64,000 nucleotides of DNA. It comes from Bacteroidales bacterium. GTDB taxonomy: Bacteria; Bacteroidota; Bacteroidia; Bacteroidales; UBA5342. The notes under the pieces are model-generated. The model saw nothing but the letters and a program-made list of their open reading frames with translations, did no database searches and was not told the DNA's origin. A program made the translations under genes and the position numbers. The stretch spans positions 17,143 through 81,142 of the forward strand of contig JBFHER010000001.1 of assembly GCA_041584055.1 (NCBI GenBank). Reading direction: 5' to 3'. Below are positions 7,303 through 45,761 of this stretch, piece by piece (position 1 is the first letter of the stretch; the number at the start of each line of letters is the position of its first letter).

Positions 7303-8856
7303 ATGATTAATAAAATAAGTTTATTTCTACTGTTGTCCATCCTGTTTTTTTCGTGTCAGGAAGAAATTGATGAATACTATTATGAGGGGACAGAAGCTTC
7401 TGTTGATACTGATATTTTGACCTTGTTGAAAGAGAAGCCGGAATATTCTGAGTTTGTGTCTCTTTTGGAACAGTTTAGGGTTGACACTTTGCTTGAGCAG
7501 GGAAAGATCTTCACATTCTTTGTGCCTAACAACAGTGCCATGGAAACCATGGAGAACGGCACATTGGGGGATAAAGAGTTAGTTGAATACCTGATCACAG
7601 AATCCTATGTAAATCTGAATCAAATTGTTGGTCAGAATAAAATACAAACACAGGGGGGAAAGTTTGCGCTTATTCAGCAAGTAGGAGGGGCTAGCTATAC
7701 ATTTGATGGAATTGCCATCGTAAATGGAGGACCTTTAACCAATAACGGACGTTACTATGAAATTGCAAAGGTTGCGGAACCAAAGCCAAGTTTGTATCAA
7801 TACATTGCGGCAACAAACGATTTCTATCGTTCTTACCTGGATTCCAGAGATTCCATCTACCTTGACAAAGAGTTGAGTACGCCCATTGGTTATACGAATG
7901 ATGGTTTAACCATTTACGATACGGTGCTGACAACAGTTAATTTGTTTGAGGAATTCTATTTCCCTGTTTCGGAAGAGTTCAGAGACTACAAAGCAACAAT
8001 GCTTTTATTTACTCAGGAGCAATACGACAATGCTCTTGAAATTGTGGCTAACGCGTTAAACATCCCTCTGGGAAACATCCCCGGCATTTGGCAAAATGAG
8101 GTGTTAATGCCTTACCTGCTGGAACAGAGCGTGTTTAGAAATTCACTTCCCTACTCTGCATTTTCAAAGGGGCGGGCTAAAAACATTCTTGGGGATAGTG
8201 TGGATGTAAATCCGCAGAATATTACGTTTGAATCTTTTGAATGTAGCAATGGGAGAGCATATAACTTTATTGACTTTCAAGTGCCTGAATTTCTGTATAA
8301 AGTAAACGATTCCATCGCGATGTCATCACTTTTATACAATAAAGGTTCCGACCTTTGGGGATGGAATGATGATGTGACCGTAACCGGCCAGACATTTAAT
8401 CCGCTTCGTGTTGCAAATGCCAATTCTATCTTTGGTAGTACCTTACTGATTGATATGGGTAAAAGCTTTAACGGAAATTTCTCATTTGCATATACCCACA
8501 AGAATATATTCCCGGCAACGTACAAGTTAACGATACGCGCCAATGTTAGTAAAACAGGTATTTATAATATTTATGTTAATGGCAAACACTATCCTGTGGA
8601 TATTAATGATGGCAAAGGTCCGCAGTACGATTTTGATTTCTTTAACCTTAGGTCCGGGGTTGTTAGCCCTGTGACAAACAAGTATTACCCTTTCGAAAAC
8701 AACTTCTGTAAGTTTGATATTTTAGTAGATAACATAACAGAATTTGGGGATGTTGAGGTTAAACTTGATTATGTTAAGCCCAGTCAACGAAACAGTAATA
8801 ATTGCGGTCTCAATATCGATTTTATTTCTCTGGAATATTTAAATAACGGTAATTAA
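7303..8856 (+). CDS. FAS1 (fasciclin) domain lipoprotein with C-terminal beta-sandwich region
   Basis: Lipobox 'FFSCQEE'. FAS1 motif 'FTFFVPNNSAMETM'. The C-terminal third ('TYKLTIRANVSKTGIYNIYVNGK...NIDFISLEYL') resembles the tail of the preceding FAS1 protein. Confidence 0.8.
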   Translation: MINKISLFLLLSILFFSCQEEIDEYYYEGTEASVDTDILTLLKEKPEYSEFVSLLEQFRVDTLLEQGKIFTFFVPNNSAMETMENGTLGDKELVEYLITESYVNLNQIVGQNKIQTQGGKFALIQQVGGASYTFDGIAIVNGGPLTNNGRYYEIAKVAEPKPSLYQYIAATNDFYRSYLDSRDSIYLDKELSTPIGYTNDGLTIYDTVLTTVNLFEEFYFPVSEEFRDYKATMLLFTQEQYDNALEIVANALNIPLGNIPGIWQNEVLMPYLLEQSVFRNSLPYSAFSKGRAKNILGDSVDVNPQNITFESFECSNGRAYNFIDFQVPEFLYKVNDSIAMSSLLYNKGSDLWGWNDDVTVTGQTFNPLRVANANSIFGSTLLIDMGKSFNGNFSFAYTHKNIFPATYKLTIRANVSKTGIYNIYVNGKHYPVDINDGKGPQYDFDFFNLRSGVVSPVTNKYYPFENNFCKFDILVDNITEFGDVEVKLDYVKPSQRNSNNCGLNIDFISLEYLNNGN

Positions 8857-22989: not shown

Positions 22990-23387
22990 TTTGTGTACCT
23001 AATTTGTCAAATTCTCCATTTTAAAAGATATATTATATATCTAATATTGGCATTAAATATACTAAAAATAGCGTAAATAGAACTTTTAGTGTGTGTGAAT
23101 AAGAAATTGGTCTGAAGTGTTGTTACATTCTGCTGAGATATCAAATCATACCATTACCGAAGGCGATGGTCGGCTGAAATGTTTATGCTAAAACAGTATT
23201 ATTACAATCTAATATCATTTCTAGTTTGTATTATGCTTTAAAAATCGGATTTGTCCATGGTGGAAAGCATGCTTCGCATTGCTTTCTTCCGGATTGTCTG
23301 GACCTGTGCGATTAACGACTCTAAATAAGTAATGGAGGAGAACGTTTTTTAACGGTGTTTCAGGAAATATATCAAAAAAATATAGAA

Positions 23388-24800
23388 ATGGTGAAAATAG
23401 GTTTGTTCGGCATCGGTTTAAATACATATTGGGACCAATTTGATGGATTATTGGAGAGACTAACTGCCTACCAAAAACAGATTGCCCATAAAATGGTGGA
23501 ATTTGGTGCCGATGTGATGGATGCCGGTTTAGTGGATTCTCCCGGGAAAGCCAGGGAATCCGGTGAATACCTAAAGAACAATGATGTGGACATTGTTTTT
23601 CTTTACGTGTCAACCTATGCTTTGTCTTCAACTGTTTTACCGATAGCTCAAAAGTTGAAATGTCCTCTCATTATATTAAATATTCAGCCGGTAGCTGCCA
23701 TTGATTATGAAAGCTTTAATATGTTGGGTGATCGTGGAAAAATGACCGGGGAATGGTTGGCGCATTGTCAGGCATGTTCTGTACCTGAAATCGCCAATGT
23801 GTTTAATCGTGCCGGAATCGCTTACGATATTGTTACCGGTTATTTGGGTGAGCAGTCTGTTTGGGATGAAATACATGGCTGGATTGAAGCCGCAACTGTC
23901 GCAAGGGTGATGCGAAATAACCGTCTGGGCGTGTTGGGGCATTATTACGGCGGCATGCTGGATGTTTATACTGATCTTACCAAACAGACAGCCGCATTTG
24001 GTACACACATCGAATTGCTTGAAATGTGTGAGGTGAAAAAATACCACGACGAAGCGACGGATGCCGAATTAGAAGCTAAAATAAATGAGTTCAACGCCAC
24101 TTTTGAAGTCGTGGATGCATGCGAACAGAAAGAAATTAAACGTGCCGCCCGAACATCCGTTGCACTTGATAAATTGGTTGAAGCCCACAAACTGGGCGCT
24201 ATGGCCTATTACTACGAGGGAGAAGCCGGTAACGACTACGAAAACATTGTCACTTCGGTCATTGCCGGAAATACATTGCTTACAGGCAAAAATATTCCGG
24301 TGGCAGGAGAGTGCGAAGTGAAAAATGCACAGGCCATGAAAATTATGGATTCCTTTGGGGTAGGTGGTTCATTCTCCGAGTTCTATGCCATGGATTTCAA
24401 CGATGATATTGTGATGTTGGGCCACGATGGGCCGGCTCATTTTGCCATTGCAGAAGGAAATGTACAATTGGTGCCGCTTCCAATCTATCATGGTAAGCCT
24501 GGGAAAGGTTTATCCATTCAAATGACTGTGAAACATGGCCCTGTTACCATTCTTTCGGTAGTAGAAGACAAAGAAAAGGTATTTTTATTGGTAGCAGAAG
24601 GAGAATCAGTAGAAGGACCAATCCTTCAGATTGGCAATACCAATAGTAGGTATCGATTTTCCATTGGAGCCAGAGAATTCATAAATCAGTGGTCGAAGCA
24701 GGGACCGGCACATCATTGTTCAATCGGTGTGGGGCATATTGCCAACAAAATTGAAAAGCTGGGGCACATCCTTGATATGGATGTAGTTAAAATTTGTTAG
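23388..24800 (+). CDS. L-arabinose/L-fucose isomerase-family protein (cytoplasmic sugar isomerase)
   Basis: No signal peptide. 'MVKIGLFGIGLNTYWDQFDGL...DIVFLYVSTYALSS...LIILNIQP' resembles the AraA/FucI-superfamily N-terminus. 'VAGECEVKNAQAMKI','GHDGPAH'. The track ORF begins at GTG 23355. The ATG at 23388 (MVKIGLFG) is the more likely start. Confidence 0.75.
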   Translation: MVKIGLFGIGLNTYWDQFDGLLERLTAYQKQIAHKMVEFGADVMDAGLVDSPGKARESGEYLKNNDVDIVFLYVSTYALSSTVLPIAQKLKCPLIILNIQPVAAIDYESFNMLGDRGKMTGEWLAHCQACSVPEIANVFNRAGIAYDIVTGYLGEQSVWDEIHGWIEAATVARVMRNNRLGVLGHYYGGMLDVYTDLTKQTAAFGTHIELLEMCEVKKYHDEATDAELEAKINEFNATFEVVDACEQKEIKRAARTSVALDKLVEAHKLGAMAYYYEGEAGNDYENIVTSVIAGNTLLTGKNIPVAGECEVKNAQAMKIMDSFGVGGSFSEFYAMDFNDDIVMLGHDGPAHFAIAEGNVQLVPLPIYHGKPGKGLSIQMTVKHGPVTILSVVEDKEKVFLLVAEGESVEGPILQIGNTNSRYRFSIGAREFINQWSKQGPAHHCSIGVGHIANKIEKLGHILDMDVVKIC

Positions 24801-26631: not shown

Positions 26632-29600
26632 ATGAAACGAAAGATACATCTCAAATCAAACGCAACTATTTTGCTGTTCAGTTTGCTATCAATTTCAGTA
26701 TTCGGAAATGGTTTGAAGACCCAGGATTTACGATGTGAATATCGCGTGAATCCATTGGGTATTGATAATGAGTCCCCTCGTTTAAGCTGGAAAATAATTG
26801 ATCCGCTAAATACACGTGGGCAAAAGCAAACAGCCTATCGAATTCTGGTAGCGAGCAGTTTAGATAATTTGAATGGTAACAAGGGAGATTTGTGGGATTC
26901 TGGGAAGGTTGTAAGCAGCCAATCGGTGAACAATACCTATCAGGGACAGGCTTTAAAGTCTGCAACAAAGTATTTCTGGAAAGTAAAAGTGTGGGATGCT
27001 GATGGGAAGAGCTCTGATTGGAGTGAAGCCGGGTATTTTTCTATGGGCTTGTTAAAACAATCGGATTGGAAAGGCGAATGGATTCTGAAACCGGATCAGG
27101 AAAAGACAGATCATAACTGGTATAGAAAAACTTTTAAGTTAAATGAAAAAGCAACATCTGCCTTTGTTTATGTAGGTTCTTTTGGTTATCACGAATTATA
27201 TGTGAATGGTAAAAAAGTAACAGATAATGTAATGAACCCGGTTTCTTCTTATATGAAAAAACGAATTCCTTATTTGACCTATGATATTACTCAATTTTTG
27301 AATGTAGGTGATAATGTAATTGCCATTTGGCATGCAGCAGGTTGGGCACGTTGGGATCGCATTATTGATTATCGTAATCCACCGTTTGTGTTTAAAGCGC
27401 AAACGAATATATTGACTAGTAAGGGTGAAATGGTATTCGGGACTGATGAAACCTGGAAATGTAAAAAAAGCCATAGTTCTTATTATGGCGATTGGGATAT
27501 TTTAGATTTTGGTGGTGAAACCATAGATGACAGGTTTAAGGAAGATGATTGGAATGCCATTGCATATAACGATGCTGATTGGGGCAATGCCAGTTCTTAC
27601 AATGCTGAAAAATTAAATGCATCACTCGAAAAAATCAATGATTCTTTTGAGGTTAAAGAAGATAAACTAATAGGTAAAAATAAATTTAAAAATAGAAAAT
27701 TCAGTAGCATTACCGCACAACTAAGTGCTCAAATGGTAGAGCCTCAAATTAAATTCAGAGAAATTACACCTATGGCCATCACCCAAAATGACGATGGTAC
27801 TTATAGGGTAGATATGGGCGAAAACTATACGGGTTTTTTTGAAATGGATTTATTTCAAGGAAAAGAAGGAGATTCTATTGTATTTGAAATAAGCGATGTA
27901 GAAGATGTGCGATCTAATTGGAAGCAAAAAAGCAAATACATTTTTGGAAAATCGGGTGAAGGTAAATTTGCCAACCGTTTTAATGTGGCAGGCGGACGCT
28001 GGATGACCGTTTATGGCCTAAAATATGAACCTAACTTATCCGACATCAAAGGCTATGTGGTGACGAATAATCGTAAACAGATCAGTCAATTTGAATCATC
28101 AGATCCATTACTCAATAAAATATACAACATAAACCTTGCTACCTACTTAGCAAATACCATGGACGGTATATTGGTCGATTGTCCACACCGTGAACGCAGA
28201 GGCTGGGGAGAAGTAACGGTTGCAGCCATGTATGGTGATGCGCTGCCCAATTTCGAGAGTGGTGCTTATATGGATCAATATCTGCAATATACAAGAGATG
28301 CACAACTTCCCGATGGTCAAATAAGGGGCATTATAAATGAAAATGACCGACCGTTTTTAATGTGGAAAGCCAATAATCCCTTAACGGTTTGGGAAACCTA
28401 CAGCATGTTGGGCGACAAAAAAGTATTGGAAGATAATTACGACGCCATGAAAAAATGGATGACGTGGATGTATAAGAATTCTAATTATGAAACAGGTGGC
28501 GCATTAATAACTGGTGAGCAAGGAGCTAGAGCATTTCCAGGCTTGGGTGATTGGTGTACTCCGCGAGGTAATTTTTGGACTAGCAGTAATTCTCCTGCAG
28601 CCATCCATTTTAACAATTGTGTATACGCCTATATGTTAGACAATGCGATGCAAATCGCGAAGGTTTTAGGTAAAACAGAAGATGCCAGGATATATGCCGA
28701 ACGATTAAAAGTGCAGCGCGAATCGACTCATAGACTATCATACAATCCAGAGACAGGCAAGTATGTGGATGGCTTACAGGTCGATCAGGCTTTTGCCCTT
28801 TTGGCTGGCGTAACTCCAGAGACTGAACGCAAAAAAGTATATGATAATTTGGTGGATAATGTACTCTATAAATTTCCTTACTACGATACAGGAAGTTCAG
28901 GACAGGCATTGTACACACGCTATTTTATTGAATCGGGTGAACGCATGGATTTAATTTATGAGCTACTTCGAGACAAGCACCACCCGAGTTATGGTTATTT
29001 TATCGGGCAAGGGAAAACTGTTTGGCCAGAGCGCTGGTCTGCTGTTGGAGTAAGTCAAATTCATACCTGCTATACAGGCATTGGAGGCTATTTTATCAAA
29101 GGTTTTGGAGGCATACGCCCAAATGCTGATGGTGCAGGTATGCAACACATGCGTATTAAACCCACTCTTGTTGACGATATTGCTTTCGCAAATACTGCGT
29201 ATGAATCCCTGTATGGTAATGTGGTGGTTAATTGGAAGAAATACGAAAAAGGAGCAAGCTTTCACATTGAAATTCCTGCCAATACAAGCGCAAAAGTATA
29301 TTTGCCGGCGACTGATAAAAAGGTTGTGAAAGAAGGGAATACACGGGCAGAAAACGCCGAGGGAATATCCTATGCAGGAACAGAAAAAAGTGATGCTGTC
29401 GGAAACTATGTAATATATAATGTTGTTTCCGGTGTGTATGATTTTGTGGTAGAAACCTTACCCGAAGTATCCTTCCCTGATCCGATAATAGCGTCGCAAA
29501 ACCTGGCCACTTTGGGTAGAATGAATGCTTCTTCTATGTTTATTGAAACCGAAAAATTACCCGGGTTTGAAGCCTTTAAAGCCAACGACGAAGATGCAGA

Positions 29601-29880
29601 GACTTGCTGGTTAGCTGATGCCGCAAAAAATCAATATTTAGAAGTTGAATGGTTAAAACCGCAACGCTTTAGCCAAATTGTTATTGATGAGGTAGATAAT
29701 AATATTACGGCTTATAAACTTCAATACTTTGATAATGGTGATTGGATCGACCTTGTAAATGGAACAACATGTGGTAGCAATAAAAACCATCGTTTTGAAA
29801 CAGTTACAGCTACAAAGTGCAGGATATTTATGATGGATGCCCAAACGGCCCCCTCTATTTCAGAGATAAAGATTTTTTAA
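26632..29880 (+). CDS. GH78 alpha-L-rhamnosidase with C-terminal F5/8 type C (discoidin/CBM32-like) domain
   Basis: Canonical GH78 N-terminus 'LRCEYRVNPLGIDNESPRLSW...QTAYRILVASS...LWDSGKV...YFWKVKVWD'. 'VDCPHRERRGWGE'. Tail 'FKANDEDAETCWLAD..QYLEVEW..AYKLQYFDNGDW' is discoidin-like. Confidence 0.9.
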   Translation: MKRKIHLKSNATILLFSLLSISVFGNGLKTQDLRCEYRVNPLGIDNESPRLSWKIIDPLNTRGQKQTAYRILVASSLDNLNGNKGDLWDSGKVVSSQSVNNTYQGQALKSATKYFWKVKVWDADGKSSDWSEAGYFSMGLLKQSDWKGEWILKPDQEKTDHNWYRKTFKLNEKATSAFVYVGSFGYHELYVNGKKVTDNVMNPVSSYMKKRIPYLTYDITQFLNVGDNVIAIWHAAGWARWDRIIDYRNPPFVFKAQTNILTSKGEMVFGTDETWKCKKSHSSYYGDWDILDFGGETIDDRFKEDDWNAIAYNDADWGNASSYNAEKLNASLEKINDSFEVKEDKLIGKNKFKNRKFSSITAQLSAQMVEPQIKFREITPMAITQNDDGTYRVDMGENYTGFFEMDLFQGKEGDSIVFEISDVEDVRSNWKQKSKYIFGKSGEGKFANRFNVAGGRWMTVYGLKYEPNLSDIKGYVVTNNRKQISQFESSDPLLNKIYNINLATYLANTMDGILVDCPHRERRGWGEVTVAAMYGDALPNFESGAYMDQYLQYTRDAQLPDGQIRGIINENDRPFLMWKANNPLTVWETYSMLGDKKVLEDNYDAMKKWMTWMYKNSNYETGGALITGEQGARAFPGLGDWCTPRGNFWTSSNSPAAIHFNNCVYAYMLDNAMQIAKVLGKTEDARIYAERLKVQRESTHRLSYNPETGKYVDGLQVDQAFALLAGVTPETERKKVYDNLVDNVLYKFPYYDTGSSGQALYTRYFIESGERMDLIYELLRDKHHPSYGYFIGQGKTVWPERWSAVGVSQIHTCYTGIGGYFIKGFGGIRPNADGAGMQHMRIKPTLVDDIAFANTAYESLYGNVVVNWKKYEKGASFHIEIPANTSAKVYLPATDKKVVKEGNTRAENAEGISYAGTEKSDAVGNYVIYNVVSGVYDFVVETLPEVSFPDPIIASQNLATLGRMNASSMFIETEKLPGFEAFKANDEDAETCWLADAAKNQYLEVEWLKPQRFSQIVIDEVDNNITAYKLQYFDNGDWIDLVNGTTCGSNKNHRFETVTATKCRIFMMDAQTAPSISEIKIF

Positions 29881-29903
29881 AACAAGAACAGTTAACACTA
29901 TCG

Positions 29904-32771
29904 ATGCAAAAAGAGTATTGGTTAAATATAAGAAGTGGATTTGTAATTGCATGGTTATTGGTGCTAACGTCTTGTTTTGCGCCATTGCAAAAGGAGGATC
30001 AGCTTGCCTCAAACTTTAAAAACCCACCCCATGAGGTTCGTCCGCAGGCATGGTGGTGGTGGCTTCAAACACCTACAACGAAAGAGGCCATTACGCTCGA
30101 TCTGGAAGAAATGAAGGCGAAAGGCCTTTCTGGCTGCATGGTTCTGGATGGAGGAGTTGGGCCTTTTGGCCCCAATAAGTGGAAAAAGCTTACCATCATC
30201 GATACCACCGAAATAAGGTATGAACTGACTGATGAATACAAAGGCGGAAGTCTGGCTCAGCCAATGGAGAAAATGGAAATGTGGTCAAAGCCCTGGCGTG
30301 ATATGGTGCGTTTTGCATCGAAAGAAGCTGGTAGACTGGGATTGGATTTTGGTGTGTTCATAGGACCCGCCGGTTGTGCTGCTCCCTGGGTAACGCCCAA
30401 TTACGGTCAGCAGGAGTTGGTTTGGGATGATACAACAGTAGTTGGAGGCCAGCGGATAGAGCAAACGCTTGAAAAACCGCACACGCCGGTTCAAACAAAA
30501 AGGCAGCCTGAAAATCAGGTCGTAAAGGATGCTCAAAACGCCTTTTACAATGATGTTGCTGTTTTGGCCATTCCTGAAAAGCGAAATCTGAAATTGAATG
30601 AAGTACTTGATATTACCGATAAATTGGATGAAAATGGTTATCTAAAATGGGAGGCTCCGCAAGGCCAGTGGCGAATTATTCGTTTCGGCTATCGTCCAAC
30701 TGGGCGAAATTTGGGAGGCATTTTTTATATTGATCACTTGAGCAAAGAGGTTTTTGATCTGCATTGGGCAAATACAGCAGGTTTACTATTAAGTGAAATG
30801 AGTGATGATGAACGGGTCGCATTTAAGTACGTTGAGTGCGATAGTTGGGAAGCAGGTGATCCAAACTGGACGAAACATTTCCCACAGGAATTTAAAGAAC
30901 GCCGTGGCTATGATATGTTAAAACATCTGCCTGCACTAATTGGTGTAAGCATTGATTCAGAAGAATCTACGAAACATTTTATAAATGATTTCCAATTAAC
31001 CATTAGCGATTTGATTTCCGAAAATCACTATGGAAGGCAGCAGGAAGTGGCTCATGAACAGGGCTTACAATCCTATGCCGAGGCAGCAGGCCCGCACCAG
31101 TATCAGGCTGATTTGAAAAAATGTGTTAGCAAATGTGATGTGGCGATGGGCGAGTTTTGGATGCCTTCGCCTCACCGCGAAAAGCCCAGTGGTCGTTTTT
31201 TTGTGCGCGAGGCAGCAACATCGGCTCATATTTATGGCATCAGGCAGGTTTTTGCTGAATCGTTTACCTCGGTGGGTCCCAACTGGGAGGTGTCGCCATT
31301 TATGATGAAAGCTGCTGCCGATCAGGCCTTTTGCGATGGCTTGAACTGGATTTGCTTCCACACCTTTACCCATCGTCCGTCGGTGACCGAGGTGCCGGGT
31401 TTAACCCATAGTGCCGGAACGCATTTCGACCGCACAAATACATGGTGGAATCAATCGGCACCTTTTGTTACGTATCTTTCACGCTGTTCCTACATGCTTC
31501 AACAAGGCTTGTTTGCTGCCGATGTGCTAATTTATAACGGACATGGCTTGAGAAGGGGTGCAGATGCTTTAGAATGGGCTGATGGCATGAAAAACCCACC
31601 CGCGAGTTTGGGCGCTGGCTACGATTACGACAAGTGCAATGAGGAGGTACTGTTAACCCGACTTGACGTGCAAAACGGAAAGCTCATATTGCCCGACGGC
31701 ATGGATTACAAGCTTTTGGTGATCGATGAAAAAACACCCGTGTCGTTAAATGCGCTCAAAAAGATAGTGAGCCTGGTTGAGCAGGGAGCAACGGTTATGG
31801 GCAAAATAGAAATCCCAATGTTGAGTAAAGCGGATGATGCCGCTGAGTATCAAAAACTATTGAAGCGCATTTGGGGCAATACAGAGGAAGGCGAAAACGC
31901 CTTTGGGAAAGGACAAGTGGTGTGGAACCGAAGCATACGTGAGGTCTTGCAAAACAAGAACATACTTCCCGATTTTGAGTGTTCAGGTTTAAGCGATGCC
32001 GGAGTGGTGGATTTTATTCATCGCAAAACAGAAGATGGAGATATTTATTACCTTGCCAGTCGATGGCAGCCAAGTGAGAAAGTGGAATGTACATTCAGGG
32101 TAAGTGGCAAGCAACCCGAATTGTGGGATCCAGTGACGGGAGAAACACGTATTTTAACCAAGTTTAAGGTTGAAAACGGCCGTACCATCATTCCAATGGA
32201 ATTTGGACCTTGTTCATCATACTTTGTTGTTTTTAAAGAACCAATATCGGTACAGAATTCAGCTTCAAACTGGCCGACATTTAAACCGGTACAACAAATA
32301 GAAGGGGCTTGGGAAGTGCATTTTGATAAAAAATGGGGAGGGCCCGAATCTGTGATCTTTAAAAACCTAAGTGATTGGTCAAAGCATACTGATGCAGGAA
32401 TCAAATATTATTCAGGCACAGCGACATACCACAAGTCTTTTGATTGTAATAATTGGAATGAGGATGGCGAGCTTTATCTCGATTTAGGAAAAGTACACGA
32501 ATTAGCTCAGGTGAAATTAAACGGCGTCGATTTAGGCGTAGCCTGGACAAAACCTTTTCGTGTCGATATCACCTCGCATGTCAGGGCCAAAGGCAACCAA
32601 CTGGAGATTGCGGTGGTCAACCTCTGGCCCAATCGCCTTATTGGTGATGAGTTTCTTCCTGAAGAAGAAAGATATACGCAAACGAATATCCGTAAATTTA
32701 CTAAAAACAGCAGCTTGCTACCTTCTGGCCTAATTGGGCCAGTCCAAATCATCACAAAAAAGAATGATTAA
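29904..32771 (+). CDS. GH106-like glycoside hydrolase lipoprotein (putative alpha-L-rhamnosidase) with C-terminal jelly-roll domain
   Basis: 'FKNPPHEVRPQAWWWWL' N-terminal signature. C-terminal 'YYSGTATYHKSF...VVNLWPNRLIGDE...LLPSGLIGPV'. The track start at 29817 overlaps the previous gene by 64 nt. The ATG at 29904 gives the lipoprotein signal '...LVLTSCF'. Confidence 0.65.
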   Translation: MQKEYWLNIRSGFVIAWLLVLTSCFAPLQKEDQLASNFKNPPHEVRPQAWWWWLQTPTTKEAITLDLEEMKAKGLSGCMVLDGGVGPFGPNKWKKLTIIDTTEIRYELTDEYKGGSLAQPMEKMEMWSKPWRDMVRFASKEAGRLGLDFGVFIGPAGCAAPWVTPNYGQQELVWDDTTVVGGQRIEQTLEKPHTPVQTKRQPENQVVKDAQNAFYNDVAVLAIPEKRNLKLNEVLDITDKLDENGYLKWEAPQGQWRIIRFGYRPTGRNLGGIFYIDHLSKEVFDLHWANTAGLLLSEMSDDERVAFKYVECDSWEAGDPNWTKHFPQEFKERRGYDMLKHLPALIGVSIDSEESTKHFINDFQLTISDLISENHYGRQQEVAHEQGLQSYAEAAGPHQYQADLKKCVSKCDVAMGEFWMPSPHREKPSGRFFVREAATSAHIYGIRQVFAESFTSVGPNWEVSPFMMKAAADQAFCDGLNWICFHTFTHRPSVTEVPGLTHSAGTHFDRTNTWWNQSAPFVTYLSRCSYMLQQGLFAADVLIYNGHGLRRGADALEWADGMKNPPASLGAGYDYDKCNEEVLLTRLDVQNGKLILPDGMDYKLLVIDEKTPVSLNALKKIVSLVEQGATVMGKIEIPMLSKADDAAEYQKLLKRIWGNTEEGENAFGKGQVVWNRSIREVLQNKNILPDFECSGLSDAGVVDFIHRKTEDGDIYYLASRWQPSEKVECTFRVSGKQPELWDPVTGETRILTKFKVENGRTIIPMEFGPCSSYFVVFKEPISVQNSASNWPTFKPVQQIEGAWEVHFDKKWGGPESVIFKNLSDWSKHTDAGIKYYSGTATYHKSFDCNNWNEDGELYLDLGKVHELAQVKLNGVDLGVAWTKPFRVDITSHVRAKGNQLEIAVVNLWPNRLIGDEFLPEEERYTQTNIRKFTKNSSLLPSGLIGPVQIITKKND

Positions 32772-37178: not shown

Positions 37179-40100
37179 ATGGATAATCGAGTAATGAAAA
37201 TAATATTAAAAGCATTGCTAAGCAAAACCATCTTTATTGCCTTATTACTGAATGTGCTTCTATCAGATATAGAAGCTCAAAACACATCGCTAGAACATCA
37301 ATTTCAGAATCCGCCATCTTCGGCAAAGGCCATCGTTTGGTGGCACTGGATAAATGGAAATGTGAACAAAGAGAACATAACAGCTGACCTGGAAGCGATG
37401 AAAGAAATTGGGATTCAAGGTGCCCAGCTTTTTGATGTTAGCTTAGGGCAGCCCGAAGGACCGATATCTTATTTAAGTACGGAATGGCTCGAACTCTTTA
37501 ATTTTGCGGCTTTAGAAGCCCAACGTTTGGGACTCGACCTTGCTTTTCATAATTGCGCAGGTTGGTCATCAACGGGTGGACCATCCATCACCCCGGAATA
37601 TGCTATGCAAAAACTGGTTTATACTGAGACCTTACATCAAGGAGACCATTTATTCAAAGCTCAGTTAGCTCAACCAGAAACTAATTTGGGCTACTACAAA
37701 GACATTGCTATACTTGCCTTTCCCAAACCACAACACGATGAGCGTATCAATGATTTGGATTTCAAAAGCCTTGCTGGTAAAGTACGCAACCATTTAGCGC
37801 CTGATGATAAAACTGTTTCTGAACAGGCAGTGGTGAAAAAATCGGATATTATTGATTTGACATCAAGGGTGCGTATTGATGGTAGCTTAGAATGGGAGGC
37901 TCCGGAGGGAGAATGGGTCATTCTGCGATTGGGACATACACCAACGGGTATGATGAATCGTTTTCCTAGTCATGGTGGTCGTGGCTTAGAGTGTGATAAA
38001 ATGAATCGTCAGGCCGTTGATGTATTTTGGGAAGGCGGCATTCAGCCCATCATTAACCGACTAGATACACTAATAGGTACGGTCGTTAAAAAATGTCATA
38101 TTGATAGTTATGAGGTGGGAACAGCCAACTGGACGTCGAATTTTGCCAATGAGTTCAAAAAACTTCGGGCTTACAATTGTCGGTCGTATTTGCCTGCTTT
38201 GGCTGGTTACTATGTGGAAAGTGGTGAAGAAACAGAGCGTTTTCTTTGGGATTTCCGTCGTACCATTGGCGATTTAATGGCTGAGCATTATTACGGGCGT
38301 TTTAGTGAACTTTGTCACCAACATGGGATGATTTTTTCAACAGAACCCTACTGGGGACCTTTTGATAATATGCAAGTGGGCGCAACGGCTGACCTGGTTA
38401 TGTCTGAGTTTTGGAGTGGTAGTTTAGCATTTTTTGATTCGCCAAAATTTGTGGCTTCCATTGCTAAATTAAATGGAAGTACTATAGCTGAGGCCGAAGC
38501 CTTTACTGCCATGGGAGGGTGGAATGAACATCCGGCCTCTCTGAAAGCAATGGGTGATATGGCTTGGGCGCAAGGCATCAATCGTTTTGTTTTTCACAGC
38601 TATGTACACCAACCGTGGGAAGTGGCACCTGGTCTAACCTTAGGGCCTTTTGGTATTGACTTTAACCGTTTAAATACCTGGTGGGATCAGGGTAAACCGT
38701 TTATCGATTATATCGCCCGAGGGCAGTTTCTATTGCAGCAAGGCACATCAGTAGCCGATGTGTTGGTCTTTACAGGCGAGGCTTCACCTAATGATGGATT
38801 GCTGATACCTGAGTTAAAAGCAATGGGTTATGATTACGATTTGATAGGGAAAAACAAGTTGGATGTACTTAGCGTAAAGGATGGGTTGATTTGTACTCCG
38901 CTTGGGGATTCTTATCAAGCGTTGGTGATTCCTAAAACCAACTGGTTAACGCCTGAAGTACTAAACATAATTGATAAGTTGGTAAAGTCTGGTGCAACGA
39001 TCATTGGGTCTAAACCTACAAAATCACCAGGTCTTCAGAATTATCCGGAATGCGATCAGCAGGTCGCACAACTGGCTGAATACTTATGGGGAAGCAACTT
39101 AATAAGAGATGGTTCAGTGGTTGATTTTCTGAAAAATGGGACACTTCTACCCGATTTTTCAATTGAAAAAGGGAGTAGAGAAGAAATTGACTATTTACAC
39201 CGAAGAACAAAGGAGGAAGATATTTATTTTGTAGCCAACGCTAGAAGAGAGAACCGTAAGGAATCTTGTTGTTTTCGTGTGTCAGGCAAAGTGCCCGAAT
39301 TGTGGAATGCCGAAACGGGTACATTATCACAAGCTTCTGTATGGCAAGATAACGGTGATGGTACTACAACAGTTGATATTCCATTTGACTCAGAAGGATC
39401 TGTATTTGTTGTCTTCAGAAAGCCTGTGTCTTCAGACGAACACATTGTGCGCACATCAATGATACTTCATAAGCCAGCACTAAAACCACTGCTCAACTTA
39501 GAGATTATAAAGGCCGAATATGGCACCTTTTTACCCGATGGTTTGGTGGATGTGACTGAAATTGTCAAGCATAAAGTTCAGGATAACAGCTTAATAGTAG
39601 AAGCTACGCGTAGCCTTTGTGATGGTGATCCTGCTCCTGGTTATCATAAGGAACTACGCATTCAATATCGCATAAATAATGTCATTCTGGAAAAGAATGC
39701 CATGGAAAAAGAATGGCTTGAAATAGTCAATGCAGAACGTGGAGAACTTGAGATTATGAAAGCCGTTTTTGGTAAGTTCGAACGTGGCGTAGATGGTATA
39801 CCTCCTAACAAACCGATTTACGATGTCACGGAAAAAGTGAAAGCTCAAATTGCTAATGGCACTTTGGAGATTCCCATAAACGACGCTTTTGTGAAAGACA
39901 AACCAGGCTTTAACACAACCCATGCATTACGTATCACTTATACCACAAAAAGTGGAGAGTTTACCCGTACAGTGCCTCAGGGCAGCGTTTTGAGCTTGAA
40001 TCAGGATATGTCACCTTCACAACTGATCAATAAAAACGGTAAAGCCATTTGGCGAACGCCTTACCCAGGTACCTTAAAGTATACGACTTCCCTGGGGAAA

Positions 40101-40688
40101 ACAAAGAAAGTTAAAGTGAAATCGCTACCAGAGCCAATGGAATTAAGAGATGCCTGGCAGCTGCAATTTCCTAATTTTGAACACACAAGCTTTGATGAGC
40201 TGATTTCCTGGGCAGCATCGCCTGACGATAATATCCGCTACTTTTCAGGAACAGCAACTTATAAAAAGGATTTTACAGTTTCCAAAGCGATGCTGAAGGA
40301 CGACACTTCATTGGAGTTGGATCTTGGGAGTGTGAAAGAAATTGCTGAGGTTATTGTGAATGGGCACAACCTGGGGGTTTTATGGAAAGCTCCTTACAGA
40401 ATGAATATGGATAAAGTGCTTAAAGAAGGAAACAATACGCTGGAAGTACGGGTAACTAACCTGTGGCCTAACCGTTTGATTGGCGATGAGCAGTTCCCTT
40501 TAGATTATGAACGAAAAGGGCCAAACCTGAAACAATGGCCCGAGTGGCTTTTGAATAATAACACCCGCCCAACTGAACGTACTACTTTTGCTGCGTTTAA
40601 ACATTGGCATAAAGACTCAGAATTGCTGCCATCTGGTTTATTGGGACCAGTGAAAATTGTGGTTTTTAAGGTCCTGGAAATTGAATGA
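37179..40688 (+). CDS. GH106-like glycoside hydrolase (putative alpha-L-rhamnosidase) with two inserted tandem beta-modules and a C-terminal jelly-roll domain
   Basis: 'FQNPPSSAKAIVWWHWINGN'. C-terminus 'YFSGTATYKKDF...VTNLWPNRLIGDEQ...LLPSGLLGPVKIV'. Paralogous along its length to 29904-32771 but about 185 aa longer. Confidence 0.65.
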   Translation: MDNRVMKIILKALLSKTIFIALLLNVLLSDIEAQNTSLEHQFQNPPSSAKAIVWWHWINGNVNKENITADLEAMKEIGIQGAQLFDVSLGQPEGPISYLSTEWLELFNFAALEAQRLGLDLAFHNCAGWSSTGGPSITPEYAMQKLVYTETLHQGDHLFKAQLAQPETNLGYYKDIAILAFPKPQHDERINDLDFKSLAGKVRNHLAPDDKTVSEQAVVKKSDIIDLTSRVRIDGSLEWEAPEGEWVILRLGHTPTGMMNRFPSHGGRGLECDKMNRQAVDVFWEGGIQPIINRLDTLIGTVVKKCHIDSYEVGTANWTSNFANEFKKLRAYNCRSYLPALAGYYVESGEETERFLWDFRRTIGDLMAEHYYGRFSELCHQHGMIFSTEPYWGPFDNMQVGATADLVMSEFWSGSLAFFDSPKFVASIAKLNGSTIAEAEAFTAMGGWNEHPASLKAMGDMAWAQGINRFVFHSYVHQPWEVAPGLTLGPFGIDFNRLNTWWDQGKPFIDYIARGQFLLQQGTSVADVLVFTGEASPNDGLLIPELKAMGYDYDLIGKNKLDVLSVKDGLICTPLGDSYQALVIPKTNWLTPEVLNIIDKLVKSGATIIGSKPTKSPGLQNYPECDQQVAQLAEYLWGSNLIRDGSVVDFLKNGTLLPDFSIEKGSREEIDYLHRRTKEEDIYFVANARRENRKESCCFRVSGKVPELWNAETGTLSQASVWQDNGDGTTTVDIPFDSEGSVFVVFRKPVSSDEHIVRTSMILHKPALKPLLNLEIIKAEYGTFLPDGLVDVTEIVKHKVQDNSLIVEATRSLCDGDPAPGYHKELRIQYRINNVILEKNAMEKEWLEIVNAERGELEIMKAVFGKFERGVDGIPPNKPIYDVTEKVKAQIANGTLEIPINDAFVKDKPGFNTTHALRITYTTKSGEFTRTVPQGSVLSLNQDMSPSQLINKNGKAIWRTPYPGTLKYTTSLGKTKKVKVKSLPEPMELRDAWQLQFPNFEHTSFDELISWAASPDDNIRYFSGTATYKKDFTVSKAMLKDDTSLELDLGSVKEIAEVIVNGHNLGVLWKAPYRMNMDKVLKEGNNTLEVRVTNLWPNRLIGDEQFPLDYERKGPNLKQWPEWLLNNNTRPTERTTFAAFKHWHKDSELLPSGLLGPVKIVVFKVLEIE

Positions 40689-40705: not shown

Positions 40706-43012
40706 ATGAGATTAATTGTAATCTTCTTTTTGTGTCTCAACACTTTTGTACAGGCCATTGAAGTGAAAGATTTAAAATGTGAGTCTGAAACAAATCCCAT
40801 AGGAATAACAACAGCAAGACCTGGCTTTAGCTGGACTTTCGTTGGTGATGATAAAAGTCCGCAACAAGGGGGTTTTCGTATTCTGATGGCCTCAAGTATT
40901 GAGAAATTAAAGTATCCTGATATTTGGGATACAGGACCAACCAGTAAGTCTGAAACAGGACCTTATCTCTACCTTGGAGAACCATTAAAGTCCGGTCAGA
41001 AAGTTTACTGGCAGGTAAGTGTCTGGGGTAATAACAGAGGGGTGGTGCATAGCGAACCCGCCTGGTTTACTATGGGTGAAATCGTGAATCCTGAAAAATC
41101 TTTTGAGCCGCCGGTTTTTGAGCAAAAAGATGGGGTAGTGAGAATTACCCTGAATCCCAAAGATAATGGAAGAACCTTTGAAGGTATTGGCGGGGTAAGT
41201 GCCGGCGCATCAAGCGATTTATTATACGATTACAAGGATCCATATCGCAGTCAAATACTTGATATTCTGTTCAAACCAAAATTTGGTGCTGCTTTTCAGC
41301 ATTTGAAAGTTGAAATGGGTGGAGGCGAAAATTCAACCTGTGGATCAGAACCCTCGCATGCAATTACACGTGAAGAGCTAAAAAATCCCGTTTCGCGTGG
41401 TTATGAATTTTGGTTGATGAAAGAAGCGAAGAAACGAAATTCGGATATGATTTTAGAGTACCTGCCATGGAGTTTTCCTGGTTACCTAAAAGAAAACATT
41501 TTTACCAGGGAGTCGGCAGAATATTTTGTGAGTTTTATGGATGTGGCAAAACGAGAATGGGATTTGGATATTGATTGGGTAGCAGCAGCTGAAAACGAGA
41601 ACGATACCGATAGAGATTGGTTGGTGAACGAAGTTCGCCCCATGTTGGATGCCCGGGGTTATGAAAATGTGAAGATTCAAGGACCGGATGATAATAGTGG
41701 CGATTGGCAAATTTTTGAAGAATTTGATGGTGATCCTGAATTTGATAAGGTGGTAGAGGCTGTAGGATACCACTATGTGACAGGCCGCGAGTTTACCGAA
41801 GATATGGTGGATGGTCGTGGTCGTCCTACTACAAAGAAAGCCAAAGCATCGGACAAACCCCTATGGGCCAGTGAGGATTGGAGCTGGACCGGAAAAGACT
41901 GGGGCGGTGCCGGTGCACTTAACCTTGCACGCATTTACAATAAGTTTTACATTCGTGATCAGATTACAAAAACGCTTATATGGGCTCCCATTGGTTCGAT
42001 TTATAAATCGGTGACCTGGGACAAAGCAGGAGCGATGAAAGCAAATAGCCCGTGGAGTGGCTACTACGAAGTGTGGCCAACCATTTGGGCTACGGCACAC
42101 ACCACCCAGTTTGCTGAACCTCATAGCTGGCAATATTTAGATGGAGCATGCGGACTTTTTGATGCTTCCACTTACAAAGGCAGCTGTGTTACTCTAAAAG
42201 AAAAAAACAGTTCAAACTGGAGTATGATTATCTGCACCGAAGAACCTGAAAAAATGGAGGTAAATATTAGCAAAGGCCTTTCGGATAAGATCGTACATGT
42301 CTGGAGATCCGATGAAAACGAGCAATTTATTCAGCAGAAGAGTATTCGTCCGAAAAATGGGGTGTTTACCATTGAGCTGGACCCACTATGCATATATTCA
42401 TTAACAACTACCGATGGTCAGCAAAAAGGACAATATGAAATACCCGAAGAAGCAGCATTCCCATTCCCTTATAAGGAGGACTATGAGGATAGGGAAGCAG
42501 GCGATTTGCCAAAATATCATTCGGATCAAACAGGGAGCTTCGTCATTGCCAAAAGAGATGACGGTACAAACTGTTTAAAGCAAATAAACCCGGAACAAGG
42601 TTACGACTGGATGCGCGTTTACCGACGTTCAAATATTAAGCCTAATACTTTGATTGGAGATGTAAACTGGAAGGATTTTACGTGTAGTGTTGATGCTTTT
42701 ATAAAAGGCGGCAATGTAGAATTAGGTGGCAGGGTTCAGGGGAGTTATTTGAGAGGGGTTCGCTTTGTGCTCGAAAAAAGTGGGGACTGGAAACTTGTTT
42801 TTGATAAAGATATACTTTCAGAAGGAAGCATTGATGATTTTGATGGAGTTGTGTGGCACAACATAAAACTTCGGTTTGATGATAAAGAGATTCATGCCTT
42901 TGTTGATGAAGAATTCATGACCAAGGTGAACCATGAAAGTCAATCCGGGTATGTTTTATTGGGAAGCTCGTATGATGCTAACCTATTTGATAATTTGGTG
43001 ATATCAGATTGA
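40706..43012 (+). CDS. GH59 (galactocerebrosidase-like beta-galactosidase) fused to a GH78-type N-terminal module; C-terminal lectin-like domain
   Basis: '[61 protein letters not shown]' closely parallels the animal GALC segment '[49 protein letters not shown]' (quoted from memory). '[10 protein letters not shown]' matches the GALC nucleophile context. The first ~110 aa, '[45 protein letters not shown]', are the GH78 N-terminal module. Confidence 0.8.
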   Translation: [768 protein letters not shown]

Positions 43013-43085: not shown

Positions 43086-44579
43086 ATGTTGAATAGAAAT
43101 AAATTAAAAGTTATGACAGAAAGGTATTTAGCTATTGTAATAATACTGGTTGCAGCATTCAGCTCTTGCAAAAAGCAGGAACAAGTTAGCAAACCCAACG
43201 TTGTTTATATCCTCACCGACCAATGGCGTGCACAGGCGCTTGGGTATGCTGGCGATCCAAATGTGAAAACGCCTCAACTCGATAAATTTGCAAAAGAAGC
43301 AGTTAATTTTGCCAATGCTGTGTCGGTAGCTCCCGTTTGTACGCCACATCGTGCTGCATTGATGACGGGGCGCTATCCAACCAGTACAGGTATGTTTTTA
43401 AACGATCTTTACTTGCCAGATGAAGAATTGTGCATGGCAGAGATATTCAAAGCACAGGGCTATCAAACGGCACATGTTGGGGGGAAGTGGCACTTAGATG
43501 GTCACGGTCGGCTGAATAATGTAGCGCCGGAACGGCGTCAAGGGTTCGATTTTTGGATGGGGAACGAATGTTCGCACAATTACGCTAAAGAACCGTACTA
43601 CAAAAATGATGAACCCAATGTGAAATACTACGAAAGGTATTCTCCATATGCCATAGCCAATGCTGCCAACGACTATTTGACTAAAAATGCAGCAAGCGAA
43701 AAGCCCTTTTTACTTTTTATCTCCATCGGCACCCCTCATTTTCCACATCATTCAGCACCAAAAGAGATGAAGGAGATTTATCCAATGGAGGACCTGGTTT
43801 TGCCACCGAATGTGCCGCAGGAAGTGGAGGTACGAACACGCAAAGAGTTACAAGGCTATTATGGGCACTGCACGGCTACGGACAAAGCCATTGGCACCGT
43901 ATTGGATAAATTGAACGATTTGGAACTAATGAAGAATACCATTTTTGTTTTTACCGCTGATCACGGCGAAATGATGGGATCACACGGTGTTAATCCCTAT
44001 AAAAAACAGTTGGGTTGGGACGAATCCATCAAAGTACCTTTTCTTATTAGCTACCCATCCATTGGAAAGAACAGAGGTGCAGTGGTTAATGCACCCATCA
44101 ACACGCCTGATATTTTGCCATCACTGCTTGGCCTGGCTAATCTCAGTATTCCGGAAACCATAGAAGGAGAGGATATTTCAGAATTGATCAGAAATCCTGA
44201 CCCCTATGCTGACCGTACTGCCTTGGTTATGGGTGTTTGTCCTTTTGGTGGTAATATAAAGGATTCTGAATATCGTCTTATACGTACAAAACAGTATACC
44301 TACGAACGAACCTTAGAAGGGGCAAGCAAGCTTTTTGATAATCTCAATGATCCATATCAGATGAATAACCTTGTGAATAAACCGGATTTTGAAGCTTTAC
44401 AGAACGATTTAGATGACCGGCTCGAGGATGAACTGAATAAGATCGGAGATGCCTTTAAACCCCGGGAATACTATTTGAAGCACTGGCATTATACTTTAGA
44501 CGAAAAGAAAAATGCCATTGATTATTGGAGTTTTGAACGTGGAGAAGGTGTGGTTGTATCACCAGGTCCTGGAAAATGA
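43086..44579 (+). CDS. S1-family sulfatase, lipoprotein
   Basis: 'PNVVYILTDQWRAQ', 'CTPHRAALMTGRYP', 'GKWHLDG', 'FVFTADHGEMMG'. Paralog of 35311-36735. An alternative start is the ATG at 43113. Confidence 0.93.
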   Translation: MLNRNKLKVMTERYLAIVIILVAAFSSCKKQEQVSKPNVVYILTDQWRAQALGYAGDPNVKTPQLDKFAKEAVNFANAVSVAPVCTPHRAALMTGRYPTSTGMFLNDLYLPDEELCMAEIFKAQGYQTAHVGGKWHLDGHGRLNNVAPERRQGFDFWMGNECSHNYAKEPYYKNDEPNVKYYERYSPYAIANAANDYLTKNAASEKPFLLFISIGTPHFPHHSAPKEMKEIYPMEDLVLPPNVPQEVEVRTRKELQGYYGHCTATDKAIGTVLDKLNDLELMKNTIFVFTADHGEMMGSHGVNPYKKQLGWDESIKVPFLISYPSIGKNRGAVVNAPINTPDILPSLLGLANLSIPETIEGEDISELIRNPDPYADRTALVMGVCPFGGNIKDSEYRLIRTKQYTYERTLEGASKLFDNLNDPYQMNNLVNKPDFEALQNDLDDRLEDELNKIGDAFKPREYYLKHWHYTLDEKKNAIDYWSFERGEGVVVSPGPGK

Positions 44580-44909
44580 ATCGCATTAAACAAATGTTAC
44601 ATTTTGCAACATACATTCATGGATGACCAGTTTTTACAATAAATAGTTCAAATAGTTCAAAAGCCTGTTTGTGTTATAACTTATTTTTGATATGGTAAAA
44701 AAGTAACCAAAGGGATGTCTGGGTTGTTTGAACTTTTGAAGTTATAACGATTTAATAGTGAAAAGTGCCTTATATTTTTTGATGCTCAGGACAGGATGCT
44801 TAACTTGATAAAGCACAATCATTATTCTAAGGGCTTTAGCCCAAACCTTACACAAGGCGCAGTTTAGGATATAACATGGTATTACATGCCTAAAAAAGAT
44901 GGGAGAAAT

Positions 44910-45761
44910 ATGAAAAAAATAATATTCGTTTTGACTTTAGCCTTTGTGGCAAATGCAGTATTTTCTTCTCAAAAAATAAATCCTCCCAAAGGCAGAATAG
45001 CCATTGTTGCAGATGGTAATTCTCCCGACCCAGATGATTTGGGTGGTACCGCGGTGTCAATTGCTTTGTTGCGAGCTTCAGGTTTAGAAGATCGTTTGGT
45101 GCATTATTCCTATTGCTGCGACTTAATCGTAGGAAGCAGAATTTCGGAAGAGGCAGAATTGGAACGACACGCAATGATGCAAACTGCTTGTAATGGTACT
45201 GCAAGACGCTGGGGTGGCTTTGAAGGTCTTCCTTTTTATGATGCCAGGTGGCAATTGGACCAAACCATAAAAGATTTGAGCAAAGCAATTAACGTATCTA
45301 CAGAAGAAGATCCGCTTTGGATTGTGGAGGCAGGTGAGCCTGATATCATTGGTTTTGCGTTGGCATCATCTAACAAAGAAAAACATCAATTTGTGAAGGT
45401 GGTATCACACCACCCCGCTAACGATAATGCCGGCGATTTTTACCGTTGGCAGGACATCCTCGATTTTGGTGTGGAGCAAGTTCGCATTCCCGATCAAAAT
45501 ATAAACTTAAAAGTTGAAAAAACGAAGTGGGACTGGGCCATGAATCATCCGGATGACCGCATACAATTTGTGTGGTTGATGGGCAAAATGGCCGAAGTAG
45601 ATGATGTGGTGAAATTTCAAAAAGGAAAGTGGGATTGCTCCGATGCAGGGATGGTCCTTTACTGGATTACGGGAGCAAACGTTAATCATGGATTAAAACA
45701 AGGTACAGTTGAGAATGTCAAAAATTTACTTTTGAATTTCATTGAAAGCAATCCGAAATAG
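44910..45761 (+). CDS. Secreted hypothetical protein with a nucleoside-hydrolase-like N-terminal motif
   Basis: Signal peptide 'MKKIIFVLTLAFVANAVFS' from the ATG at 44910 (track start is 44886). 'IAIVADGNSPDPDDLGGTAVSIALL' resembles the DxDxxxDD fingerprint of IU-nucleoside-hydrolase and Sde182-NH-like folds. No other motif recognised. Confidence 0.45.
   Translation: MKKIIFVLTLAFVANAVFSSQKINPPKGRIAIVADGNSPDPDDLGGTAVSIALLRASGLEDRLVHYSYCCDLIVGSRISEEAELERHAMMQTACNGTARRWGGFEGLPFYDARWQLDQTIKDLSKAINVSTEEDPLWIVEAGEPDIIGFALASSNKEKHQFVKVVSHHPANDNAGDFYRWQDILDFGVEQVRIPDQNINLKVEKTKWDWAMNHPDDRIQFVWLMGKMAEVDDVVKFQKGKWDCSDAGMVLYWITGANVNHGLKQGTVENVKNLLLNFIESNPK

Follow-up and report, generated by a model that had tools for sequence, protein, structure and literature searches.

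The 64-kb stretch of Bacteroidales DNA analyzed here (hereafter the window) encodes, at positions 40706..43012 of the + strand, a protein in which the N-terminal domain of glycoside hydrolase family 78 (GH78) rhamnosidases is joined to a complete family 59 (GH59) enzyme resembling mammalian galactocerebrosidase (GALC). The gene is complete, one intact open reading frame (ORF) of 768 amino acids (aa) plus stop, and its product has four parts: a signal peptide, an Ig_Rha78A_N domain, a GH59 catalytic domain, and a GH59 C-terminal lectin domain. We found that this fusion protein belongs to a single conserved clade of bacterial GH59 proteins and that the loci carrying it are rich in rhamnosidases and sulfatases. 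We consider it probable that the enzyme is a periplasmic retaining exo-β-D-galactosidase cutting galactose off sulfated, rhamnose-rich oligosaccharides of the ulvan type.

Domain architecture of the fusion protein

All features of the gene lie on the + strand. The putative signal peptide (40706..40756; residues 1–17), read directly off the sequence, is of the signal peptidase I type, and most of the ortholog signal peptides inspected have AxA-like ends (VQA, AQA, IYA, AHA). Since the signal region is free of Cys in several orthologs, localization as a lipoprotein is unlikely; together with the signal peptidase I-type signals, this indicates that the fusion protein is most likely secreted and periplasmic.

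The signal peptide is followed by the Ig_Rha78A_N domain (40763..41077; residues 20–124), the Ig/FN3-like "domain N" of GH78 rhamnosidases, which matches PF25788 with an E-value of 2.3e-22 (79.7 bits against a gathering cut-off of 27.4; model positions 1–102 of 105). An earlier note, made from the DNA letters alone, had proposed that a GH78-type module opens this protein, with a generic FN3 or Ig domain unrelated to GH78 as the competing possibility; Pfam parsing returned the GH78 domain N family. By BLASTP, residues 3–124 align with residues 13–139 of the GH78 encoded at 26632..29880 (32% identity over 127 columns, E = 1e-19), in which PF25788 lies at residues 31–142. Residues 18–124 also match residues 4–111 of the SaRha78A GH78 structure 3w5m (E = 2.7e-11), and the domain matches the GH78 structure 6i60 (E = 6.6e-10). 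The motifs that the note quoted as common to the two window proteins are all present, except that the GH59 protein reads FRILMASS rather than YRIL. Chance cannot account for agreement of this extent. As in the GH78 rhamnosidases SaRha78A (3W5M) and DtRha (6I60), the domain sits directly after the signal peptide. In the GH78 enzymes it precedes further β-domains and an inverting (α/α)6 barrel, whereas in the fusion it precedes a retaining GH59 (β/α)8 barrel.

A linker with the first β-strand entering the GH59 body (41078..41164; residues 125–153) connects the two halves and is the least conserved segment of the mature protein, with a mean pairwise identity of 54% and only 2 of 29 columns invariant within the fusion clade. 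The remainder is GH59, as the earlier note had also recognized. The catalytic (β/α)8 domain (41177..42109; residues 158–468) matches PF02057 (Glyco_hydro_59) over the full model, positions 1–294 of 294, with an E-value of 2.7e-111 and 372 bits against a cut-off of 27. It is followed by the β-sandwich domain with its connector (42110..42523; residues 469–606), delimited by alignment to GALC, and by the C-terminal lectin domain (42524..43006; residues 607–767), which matches PF21708 (Glyco_hydro_59_C; E = 9.7e-12). Orthologs of 767–779 aa have the same three Pfam domains.

None of the GH78 domains PF17389, PF08531, PF05592 and PF17390 gave a Pfam match in this protein, and the NCBIfam rhamnosidase equivalogs score only 55–56 bits against cut-offs of 1720–1800, over residues 4–126 alone. 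By these profile matches the fusion protein is not a GH78 enzyme, the defining (α/α)6 catalytic domain being absent. It is a GH59 enzyme by family profile, by the catalytic glutamate pair and by its predicted three-domain GALC-type fold.

The GH59 body retains the galactose pocket of GALC

Residues 154–695 of the fusion match mouse GALC with 31% identity (E = 3e-73). Over its first ~60 residues the GH59 core runs nearly colinear with GALC, and the LWASEDWS motif aligns with LWSSEDFS of the mouse enzyme, which contains the nucleophile E258; both points had been noticed earlier from the sequence and are borne out by the alignment. The predicted nucleophile is therefore E390 (codon 41873..41875), and the predicted acid/base, in the motif AAENEND, is E298 (codon 41597..41599), equivalent to GALC E182.

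We mapped the GALC residues onto an alignment of 121 sequences, comparing 85 fusion-clade clusters with 35 relatives that lack the N-domain. E298, which with N297 forms the N-E motif, and E390 are invariant in 120 of 120 homologs. GALC T93, W135, N181, E182 and Y238 correspond to T211, W255, N297, E298 and Y357 of the fusion, and GALC E258, S261, W291 and W524 to E390, S393, W426 and W635. All nine pocket and catalytic residues are unchanged in the window protein and are kept in 85 of 85 fusion clusters, apart from W635 (84 of 85). This pocket-shaping tryptophan, contributed by the lectin domain, is also kept in all 35 non-fusion proteins, and the GALC pocket residues in general are kept in nearly all 35. 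The roles of these residues in GALC, including the selection of galactose over glucose by W291, have been described (PMC4445328).

We also built an AlphaFold2 model of the fusion from a 46-sequence alignment (mean pLDDT 83.8, pTM 0.82). The Ig_Rha78A_N part is modeled as an all-β sandwich (block pLDDT 74–94), and the region of residues 469–606 is mostly β, with block pLDDT mostly above 90. The best matches in the Protein Data Bank (PDB) are three mouse GALC entries (target-normalized TM 0.85, rmsd 2.8–3.0 Å; 0.85 and 2.9 Å for 4ccc), followed far below by GH30 enzymes; no bacterial GH59 structure was present in the PDB copy searched. The modeled body thus has the TIM barrel, β-sandwich and lectin domain of mammalian GALC (mouse 3ZR5, 4CCC, 5NXB), with the same catalytic glutamates and the same T93, W135, N181, Y238, S261, W291 and W524 pocket. 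Unlike GALC, the fusion has the additional N-terminal domain, lacks the loop that carries R380, and has a Gly-rich loop around G48 that is one residue shorter. The settings differ as well: the fusion is a bacterial protein with a signal peptidase I signal, encoded in a polysaccharide utilization locus (PUL), whereas GALC acts in lysosomal glycolipid catabolism together with saposin A.

The fusion defines a single widespread clade

A homolog search of 5.8 billion proteins, from which 8000 candidates were scored, gave at least 3280 GH59 relatives at E ≤ 1e-10 among those candidates, so that the earlier impression that bacterial GH59 proteins are few does not hold. The best 85 matches have 64–100% identity; 81 of the 85 are at least 760 aa long, all contain PF25788 and PF02057, and 84 also contain PF21708. 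These ~85 fusion entries are clusters at 90% identity. Beyond them identity falls abruptly to 54% or less, and the proteins found there have the two GH59 domains only. In a neighbor-joining tree of 603 core columns the fusion set forms one clade, in which the sole additional leaf is an N-truncated fragment on a 2.2 kb contig. The fusion proteins are therefore a single monophyletic GH59 clade with a single origin.

Mean pairwise identity within the clade is 87% in the TIM barrel, 73% in the Ig_Rha78A_N domain, 70% in the β-sandwich and 69% in the lectin domain. The N-domain has thus been maintained like an integral domain of the enzyme.

A genome scan limited to one genome per species recovered at least 41 full-length fusion loci, complete chromosomes among them. 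The closest ortholog is that of Saccharicrinis sp. 156 (89% identity), by which the window would probably belong to the Marinilabiliales; in that order it is followed by Carboxylicivirga (87%), Labilibacter (85%) and Draconibacterium (84%). Carriers in the Flavobacteriaceae include Algibacter, Seonamhaeicola, Tamlana fucoidanivorans, Lutibacter, Polaribacter, Maribacter, Hyunsoonleella, Winogradskyella and Psychroserpens, among others. Orthologs with 71–72% identity occur in metagenome-assembled genomes of Verrucomicrobiota and Opitutae, and one with 70% in a Pontiellaceae genome. The clade is marine and spans three phyla, Bacteroidota, Verrucomicrobiota and Kiritimatiellota; identities of at least 70% across this range point to lateral spread of the fusion gene.

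The earlier note had suspected that a rhamnosidase-N/GH59 fusion was undescribed, while allowing that it might turn out to be common and already characterized. The architecture is recurrent, and precomputed Pfam annotation makes it visible in public databases, but we found no paper that describes the PF25788–GH59 architecture or characterizes a protein having it.

Bacterial GH59 proteins without the N-domain (for example P0087–P0120; Planctomycetota, Verrucomicrobiota and Bacteroidota) are 49–54% identical to the fusion over the whole GH59 body and have both the pocket residues and the loss of the R380 loop in common with it. At 28 positions, the fusion clade and these relatives are fixed for different residues.

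Domain N is a mobile module captured long ago

We searched 1.84 billion representatives (50% identity clusters) by phmmer with residues 18–128 as the query and obtained 5348 relatives of the N-module at E ≤ 1e-3, the best 150 of which were classed by BLAST against the GH78 and GH59 bodies of the window. Among these best 150, 41 have a GH78 body, one is a full-length GH59 fusion, 33 are long proteins with neither body, and 75 are short proteins with neither body that stay unclassified. There is a single GH59 entry because clustering at 50% identity leaves the fusion clade with one full-length representative. The module is internal, and usually repeated, in most of the 33 long neither-body proteins; the eight of them parsed by Pfam (P0121, P0122, P0124, P0126, P0129, P0130, P0133, P0141) carry two to six tandem PF25788 copies beside subtilase, FG-GAP, right-handed β-helix or BNR_4 domains. 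Such arrays reject the idea that the module is exclusive to GH78, and judged by its distribution it is a mobile Ig module. The Pfam name Ig_Rha78A_N understates that distribution.

Where a long protein among the best 150 has a single copy right after its N-terminus, it has a GH78 body, the fusion clade being the sole exception. The closest single-copy relatives of the fusion N-module anywhere are GH78 N-termini, at about 40–46% identity. Against the N-domains of GH78 enzymes encoded in the same loci, identity is only 29–44% (45 comparisons), and against that of the window GH78 it is the 32% given above. We therefore reject a recent duplication from a neighboring GH78 gene; the capture is old.

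Fusion genes reside in rhamnosidase loci

To describe the surroundings of the gene we counted domains within 10 kb on either side of the fusion in 42 loci from other genomes, and in nine loci of GH59 proteins without the N-domain. GH78 occurs in 31 of 42 fusion loci and GH106 in 23 of 42, one or the other in 37 of 42, compared with 0 of 9 in each case for the loci without the N-domain; sulfatases occur in 28 of 42 and 1 of 9, respectively. A GH78 gene is the immediate neighbor of the fusion upstream in 15 loci and downstream in 15. A protein with BNR_4, CBM6, the ulvan-lyase β-trefoil PF24208 and a type IX secretion system (T9SS) tail is encoded in 13 of the 42, and RhaT, GH3 and PL8 appear in a few.

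Individual loci illustrate the pattern. In Wenyingzhuangia fucanilytica the order is GH78-GH78-GH2-GH2-fusion-GH106, with four sulfatases and an ulvan lyase, and in Polaribacter butkevichii it is ulvan lyase, AraC, GH78, GH78, fusion, GH78, GH39, GH106; ulvan-lyase Pfam domains thus adjoin the fusion in both species. The Pontiellaceae locus reads GH78-fusion-GH106 with three sulfatases, and Saccharicrinis aurantiacus has three GH106 genes upstream of the fusion. The same type of GH106 adjoins the orthologs in Wenyingzhuangia, Pontiellaceae, Carboxylicivirga and Lutibacter, and in Carboxylicivirga L046 the window order GH106–GH59 fusion–sulfatase recurs, with a sulfatase 78% identical to the product of 43086..44579. 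The kit around the fusion (GH78, GH106, GH2, sulfatases and a 643-aa protein) is found in Bacteroidota, Verrucomicrobiota and Pontiellaceae at 60–88% protein identity but in shuffled order, which suggests that a modular gene kit, rather than a fixed operon, has spread laterally.

The GH59 genes without the N-domain sit elsewhere. Of the two such loci that we detailed, one contains GH2 and the other contains SusC/SusD, a GH36 α-galactosidase and an aldose epimerase, neighbors that fit galactoside metabolism for bacterial GH59 enzymes in general. No rhamnosidase was found within 10 kb in any of the nine, in contrast to the rhamnosidase loci of the fusion. The gain of the N-domain therefore goes along with placement in loci directed at sulfated glycans of the ulvan type that are rich in rhamnose.

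The locus in the window

The window holds one long + strand locus with two SusC/SusD pairs, eight sulfatases, three GH78 or GH78-like genes, three GH106 or GH106-like genes, GH2, GH88 and a GH39-like gene, in keeping with the sulfatase-rich PUL proposed earlier. With its SusC/SusD pairs, rhamnosidases, GH88 (unsaturated uronyl hydrolase) and sulfatases, it has the gene content expected of a large PUL for a sulfated, rhamnose-rich, ulvan-type algal glycan.

The order begins with fasciclin-domain proteins, the two SusC/SusD pairs, a GH5-like gene, GH2, the 643-aa ORF and GH88, and continues with an AraC regulator on the – strand, an AraA-like isomerase, a GH78-like gene, the full-length GH78 and a GH106. 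A second GH78-like gene, a sulfatase and another GH106 lead to the GH59 fusion. Then come three sulfatases, with a 291-aa ORF between the first and second of them, a GH39-like gene with a T9SS tail, three more sulfatases, and finally GH106-like and GH95-like genes. The upstream neighbor of the fusion is the 1169-aa GH106 α-L-rhamnosidase (37179..40688, + strand; PF17132, E = 3.9e-183), whose stop lies 18 nt before the fusion gene, and the downstream neighbor is a 497-aa S1-type sulfatase (43086..44579, + strand; PF00884, E = 1.2e-58). The full-length GH78 with the same N-module (26632..29880, + strand) contains PF25788, PF08531, PF05592, PF17389, PF17390 and PF22633. With its listed GTG start, the GH106 ORF that follows it (29817-32771, + strand) shares 64 nt with the end of the GH78; an ATG further downstream, ahead of a hydrophobic signal segment, is probably where it really begins.

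Two ORFs of the locus have no Pfam match even at E ≤ 1 and no NCBIfam match. The 643-aa ORF (18763-20691, + strand) has a homolog (51–54% identity in examples) within 10 kb of the fusion gene in 19 of the 42 other genomes and is a candidate for an unrecognized carbohydrate-active enzyme or lyase of this locus type. The 291-aa ORF between two sulfatases (44886-45761, + strand) has a homolog in 7 of 42 fusion loci. The AraA-like isomerase (23355-24800, + strand) stays far short of the scores that NCBIfam requires of an L-arabinose isomerase or a sulfoquinovose isomerase; 8 of 42 fusion loci contain a homolog, with 88% identity in Carboxylicivirga, and it may be a sugar isomerase for a released deoxy-sugar. 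Three fasciclin-domain proteins (18-917, 5686-7266 and 7303-8856, + strand) flank the two SusC/SusD pairs and may bind glycans at the cell surface for this locus, a role for which the fasciclin domain would be an unusual choice.

Proposed function and alternatives

With the galacto-configured –1 pocket intact and both catalytic glutamates in place, a retaining exo-β-D-galactosidase is the best-supported function of the fusion enzyme. The GH59 body would act as a clan GH-A enzyme, with E298 as acid/base and E390 as nucleophile, in a galactose (–1) pocket predicted to be almost the same as that of lysosomal galactocerebrosidase. It would remove terminal β-linked galactose from oligosaccharides imported by SusC/SusD and so let the neighboring GH78, GH106, GH2, GH88 and sulfatases proceed. 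The N-domain would be a non-catalytic accessory, acquired once by the ancestor of the clade and kept since then under purifying selection; it might provide structural support, mediate oligomerization or contact the glycan. Ulvan contains some galactose, up to 10–16 mol% in Ulva ralfsii (PMC10991135), and this galactose is a plausible substrate, one left aside by the canonical ulvan pathway.

Several observations weigh against this proposal. The canonical ulvan blocks are built from Rha3S, GlcA, IdoA and Xyl (PMC10991135), with no galactose in the repeats. No ulvan lyase was recognized in the 64 kb window, and our literature search found no activity report for a characterized bacterial GH59. 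The PUL H of Formosa agariphila (Reisky et al. 2019) serves as the model for ulvan loci of marine Flavobacteriia. The window locus has SusC/SusD, GH78, GH2, GH88, GH39 and multiple S1 sulfatases in common with such loci. PUL H is not known to contain GH59 or GH106. Formosa agariphila was also not returned by the one-genome-per-species fusion scan, and GH106 is not mentioned anywhere in a paper on the Formosa ulvan pathway (PMC8511951). If the model locus does without GH59, the fusion enzyme would be accessory to, and not essential for, ulvan breakdown.

Further points on the same side come from the protein itself. The GALC loop with R380, a galactose ligand, is deleted in every bacterial GH59 compared, and the G47–G49 loop of all bacterial homologs compared is shortened by one residue and has Ala at the G48 position. 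Some of the substitutions fixed in the fusion clade also lie by catalytic residues: D171 stands where GALC (R53) and 34 of 34 relatives without the N-domain have Arg, E296 directly precedes the N-E motif, D391 directly follows the nucleophile, and A427 directly follows W426. These four substitutions could signal altered specificity; they may also stem from a + subsite that differs or from contact with the N-domain. A change at R380 as a specificity switch of the fusion clade was rejected, the whole loop being missing from every bacterial GH59 compared.

It is possible, but we think unlikely, that the enzyme has kept the fold and retaining mechanism while its specificity has drifted to another sugar of ulvan-type glycans, such as β-D-glucuronic acid, β-D-xylose, sulfated galactose or α-L-arabinopyranose. 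Such a drift would agree with the canonical ulvan blocks, with the four clade-fixed residues next to catalytic positions and with the missing R380 loop. The pocket speaks against it, since all nine residues are invariant or nearly so, including W426, whose GALC counterpart W291 selects the axial O4, S393 (GALC S261, among the ligands of the 3-, 4- and 6-hydroxyls) and T211 (GALC T93). The loss of the R380 loop, moreover, is common to the GH59 proteins without the N-domain, which sit in galactoside contexts, and the window locus already has GH2 enzymes. GH2 reportedly supplies the β-glucuronidase in the Formosa ulvan pathway.

A second proposal, likewise tentative and in our judgment improbable, concerns the N-domain, which would be a targeting module that binds the sulfated rhamnose backbone or completes the +1 subsite, so that the fusion recruited a GH59 galactosidase to ulvan-type substrates. 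This would explain why the same module heads GH78 enzymes and a GH59 enzyme in one type of locus. In its favor, the module was acquired only in the clade of rhamnosidase loci (37 of 42 against 0 of 9). The conservation of the domain, equal to that of integral GH59 domains, points the same way, the whole-chain pTM is compatible with a fixed packing in the model, and of all the GH59 proteins compared, only those of the fusion clade show the R-to-D charge reversal, as a fixed trait, at residue 171 close to the substrate loop. On the other side, the tandem arrays in proteases and FG-GAP proteins look like a spacer or stalk, and papers on GH78 structures present domain N only as one of several β-sheet domains and assign it no function. 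We know of no report of carbohydrate binding by GH78 domain N.

A broader form of this proposal, in which Ig_Rha78A_N is a recognition module for sulfated rhamnose glycans common to GH78 and the GH59 clade and recruits the latter to green-algal ulvan or rhamnan, seems to us doubtful. Were it true, it would give the first bacterial GH59 with a defined activity and would add to the current ulvan pathway a β-galactosidic decoration, and a degradation step, that it now lacks.

Far less probable is a galactosylceramidase-like glycolipid hydrolase that works with the sulfatases on sulfated galactolipids, an echo of sulfatide breakdown by GALC and arylsulfatase A that the earlier note had drawn. GALC homology and sulfatase adjacency are all that favor it; the analogy finds no support in a SusC/SusD polysaccharide locus of the ulvan type, rich in rhamnosidases and sulfatases, nor in the association with GH78, GH106 and ulvan-lyase domains across genomes, and the 10 kb on either side of the fusion showed no genes for lipid handling. 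Finally, a misassembly or frameshift that put the 5' end of a GH78 gene in front of a GH59 gene, for which nothing speaks beyond the GH78 genes nearby, is refuted by the recurrence of the same 767–779 aa architecture in ~85 independent clusters and 41 full-length loci, complete chromosomes included, and by the divergence of the N-domain from co-located GH78 N-domains.

Implications

Full-text searches gave no paper that connects GH59 with sulfatases, with marine bacteria, or with ulvan or PULs, and where GH59 is mentioned it is taken to be a family of galactosylceramidases only. In the literature searched, the animal enzyme of Krabbe disease is the sole GH59 known, and neither an activity nor a structure is reported for a bacterial member. 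The fusion proteins make up an uncharacterized, conserved subclade of GH59 in which an accessory domain has been added and the ecological context is new.

Many of the orthologs (P0002, P0011, P0013, P0024, P0031 and others) are named "glycoside hydrolase family 78 protein" by NCBI and UniRef. The name "GH78 family protein" is wrong for the fusion orthologs, and it probably arose because NCBIfam gives only rhamnosidase matches on these proteins, via the N-domain, and no match to a GH59 model. The misnaming inflates rhamnosidase counts and hides GH59 in surveys of marine genomes.

As a bacterial GH59, the fusion clade is well defined and widely conserved; its ecological setting is clear, and its predicted activity can be tested. 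For domain N of GH78 enzymes, still unexplained, the clade is a natural experiment, and it points to a galactose-containing substructure of algal glycans that lies outside the model ulvan pathway.

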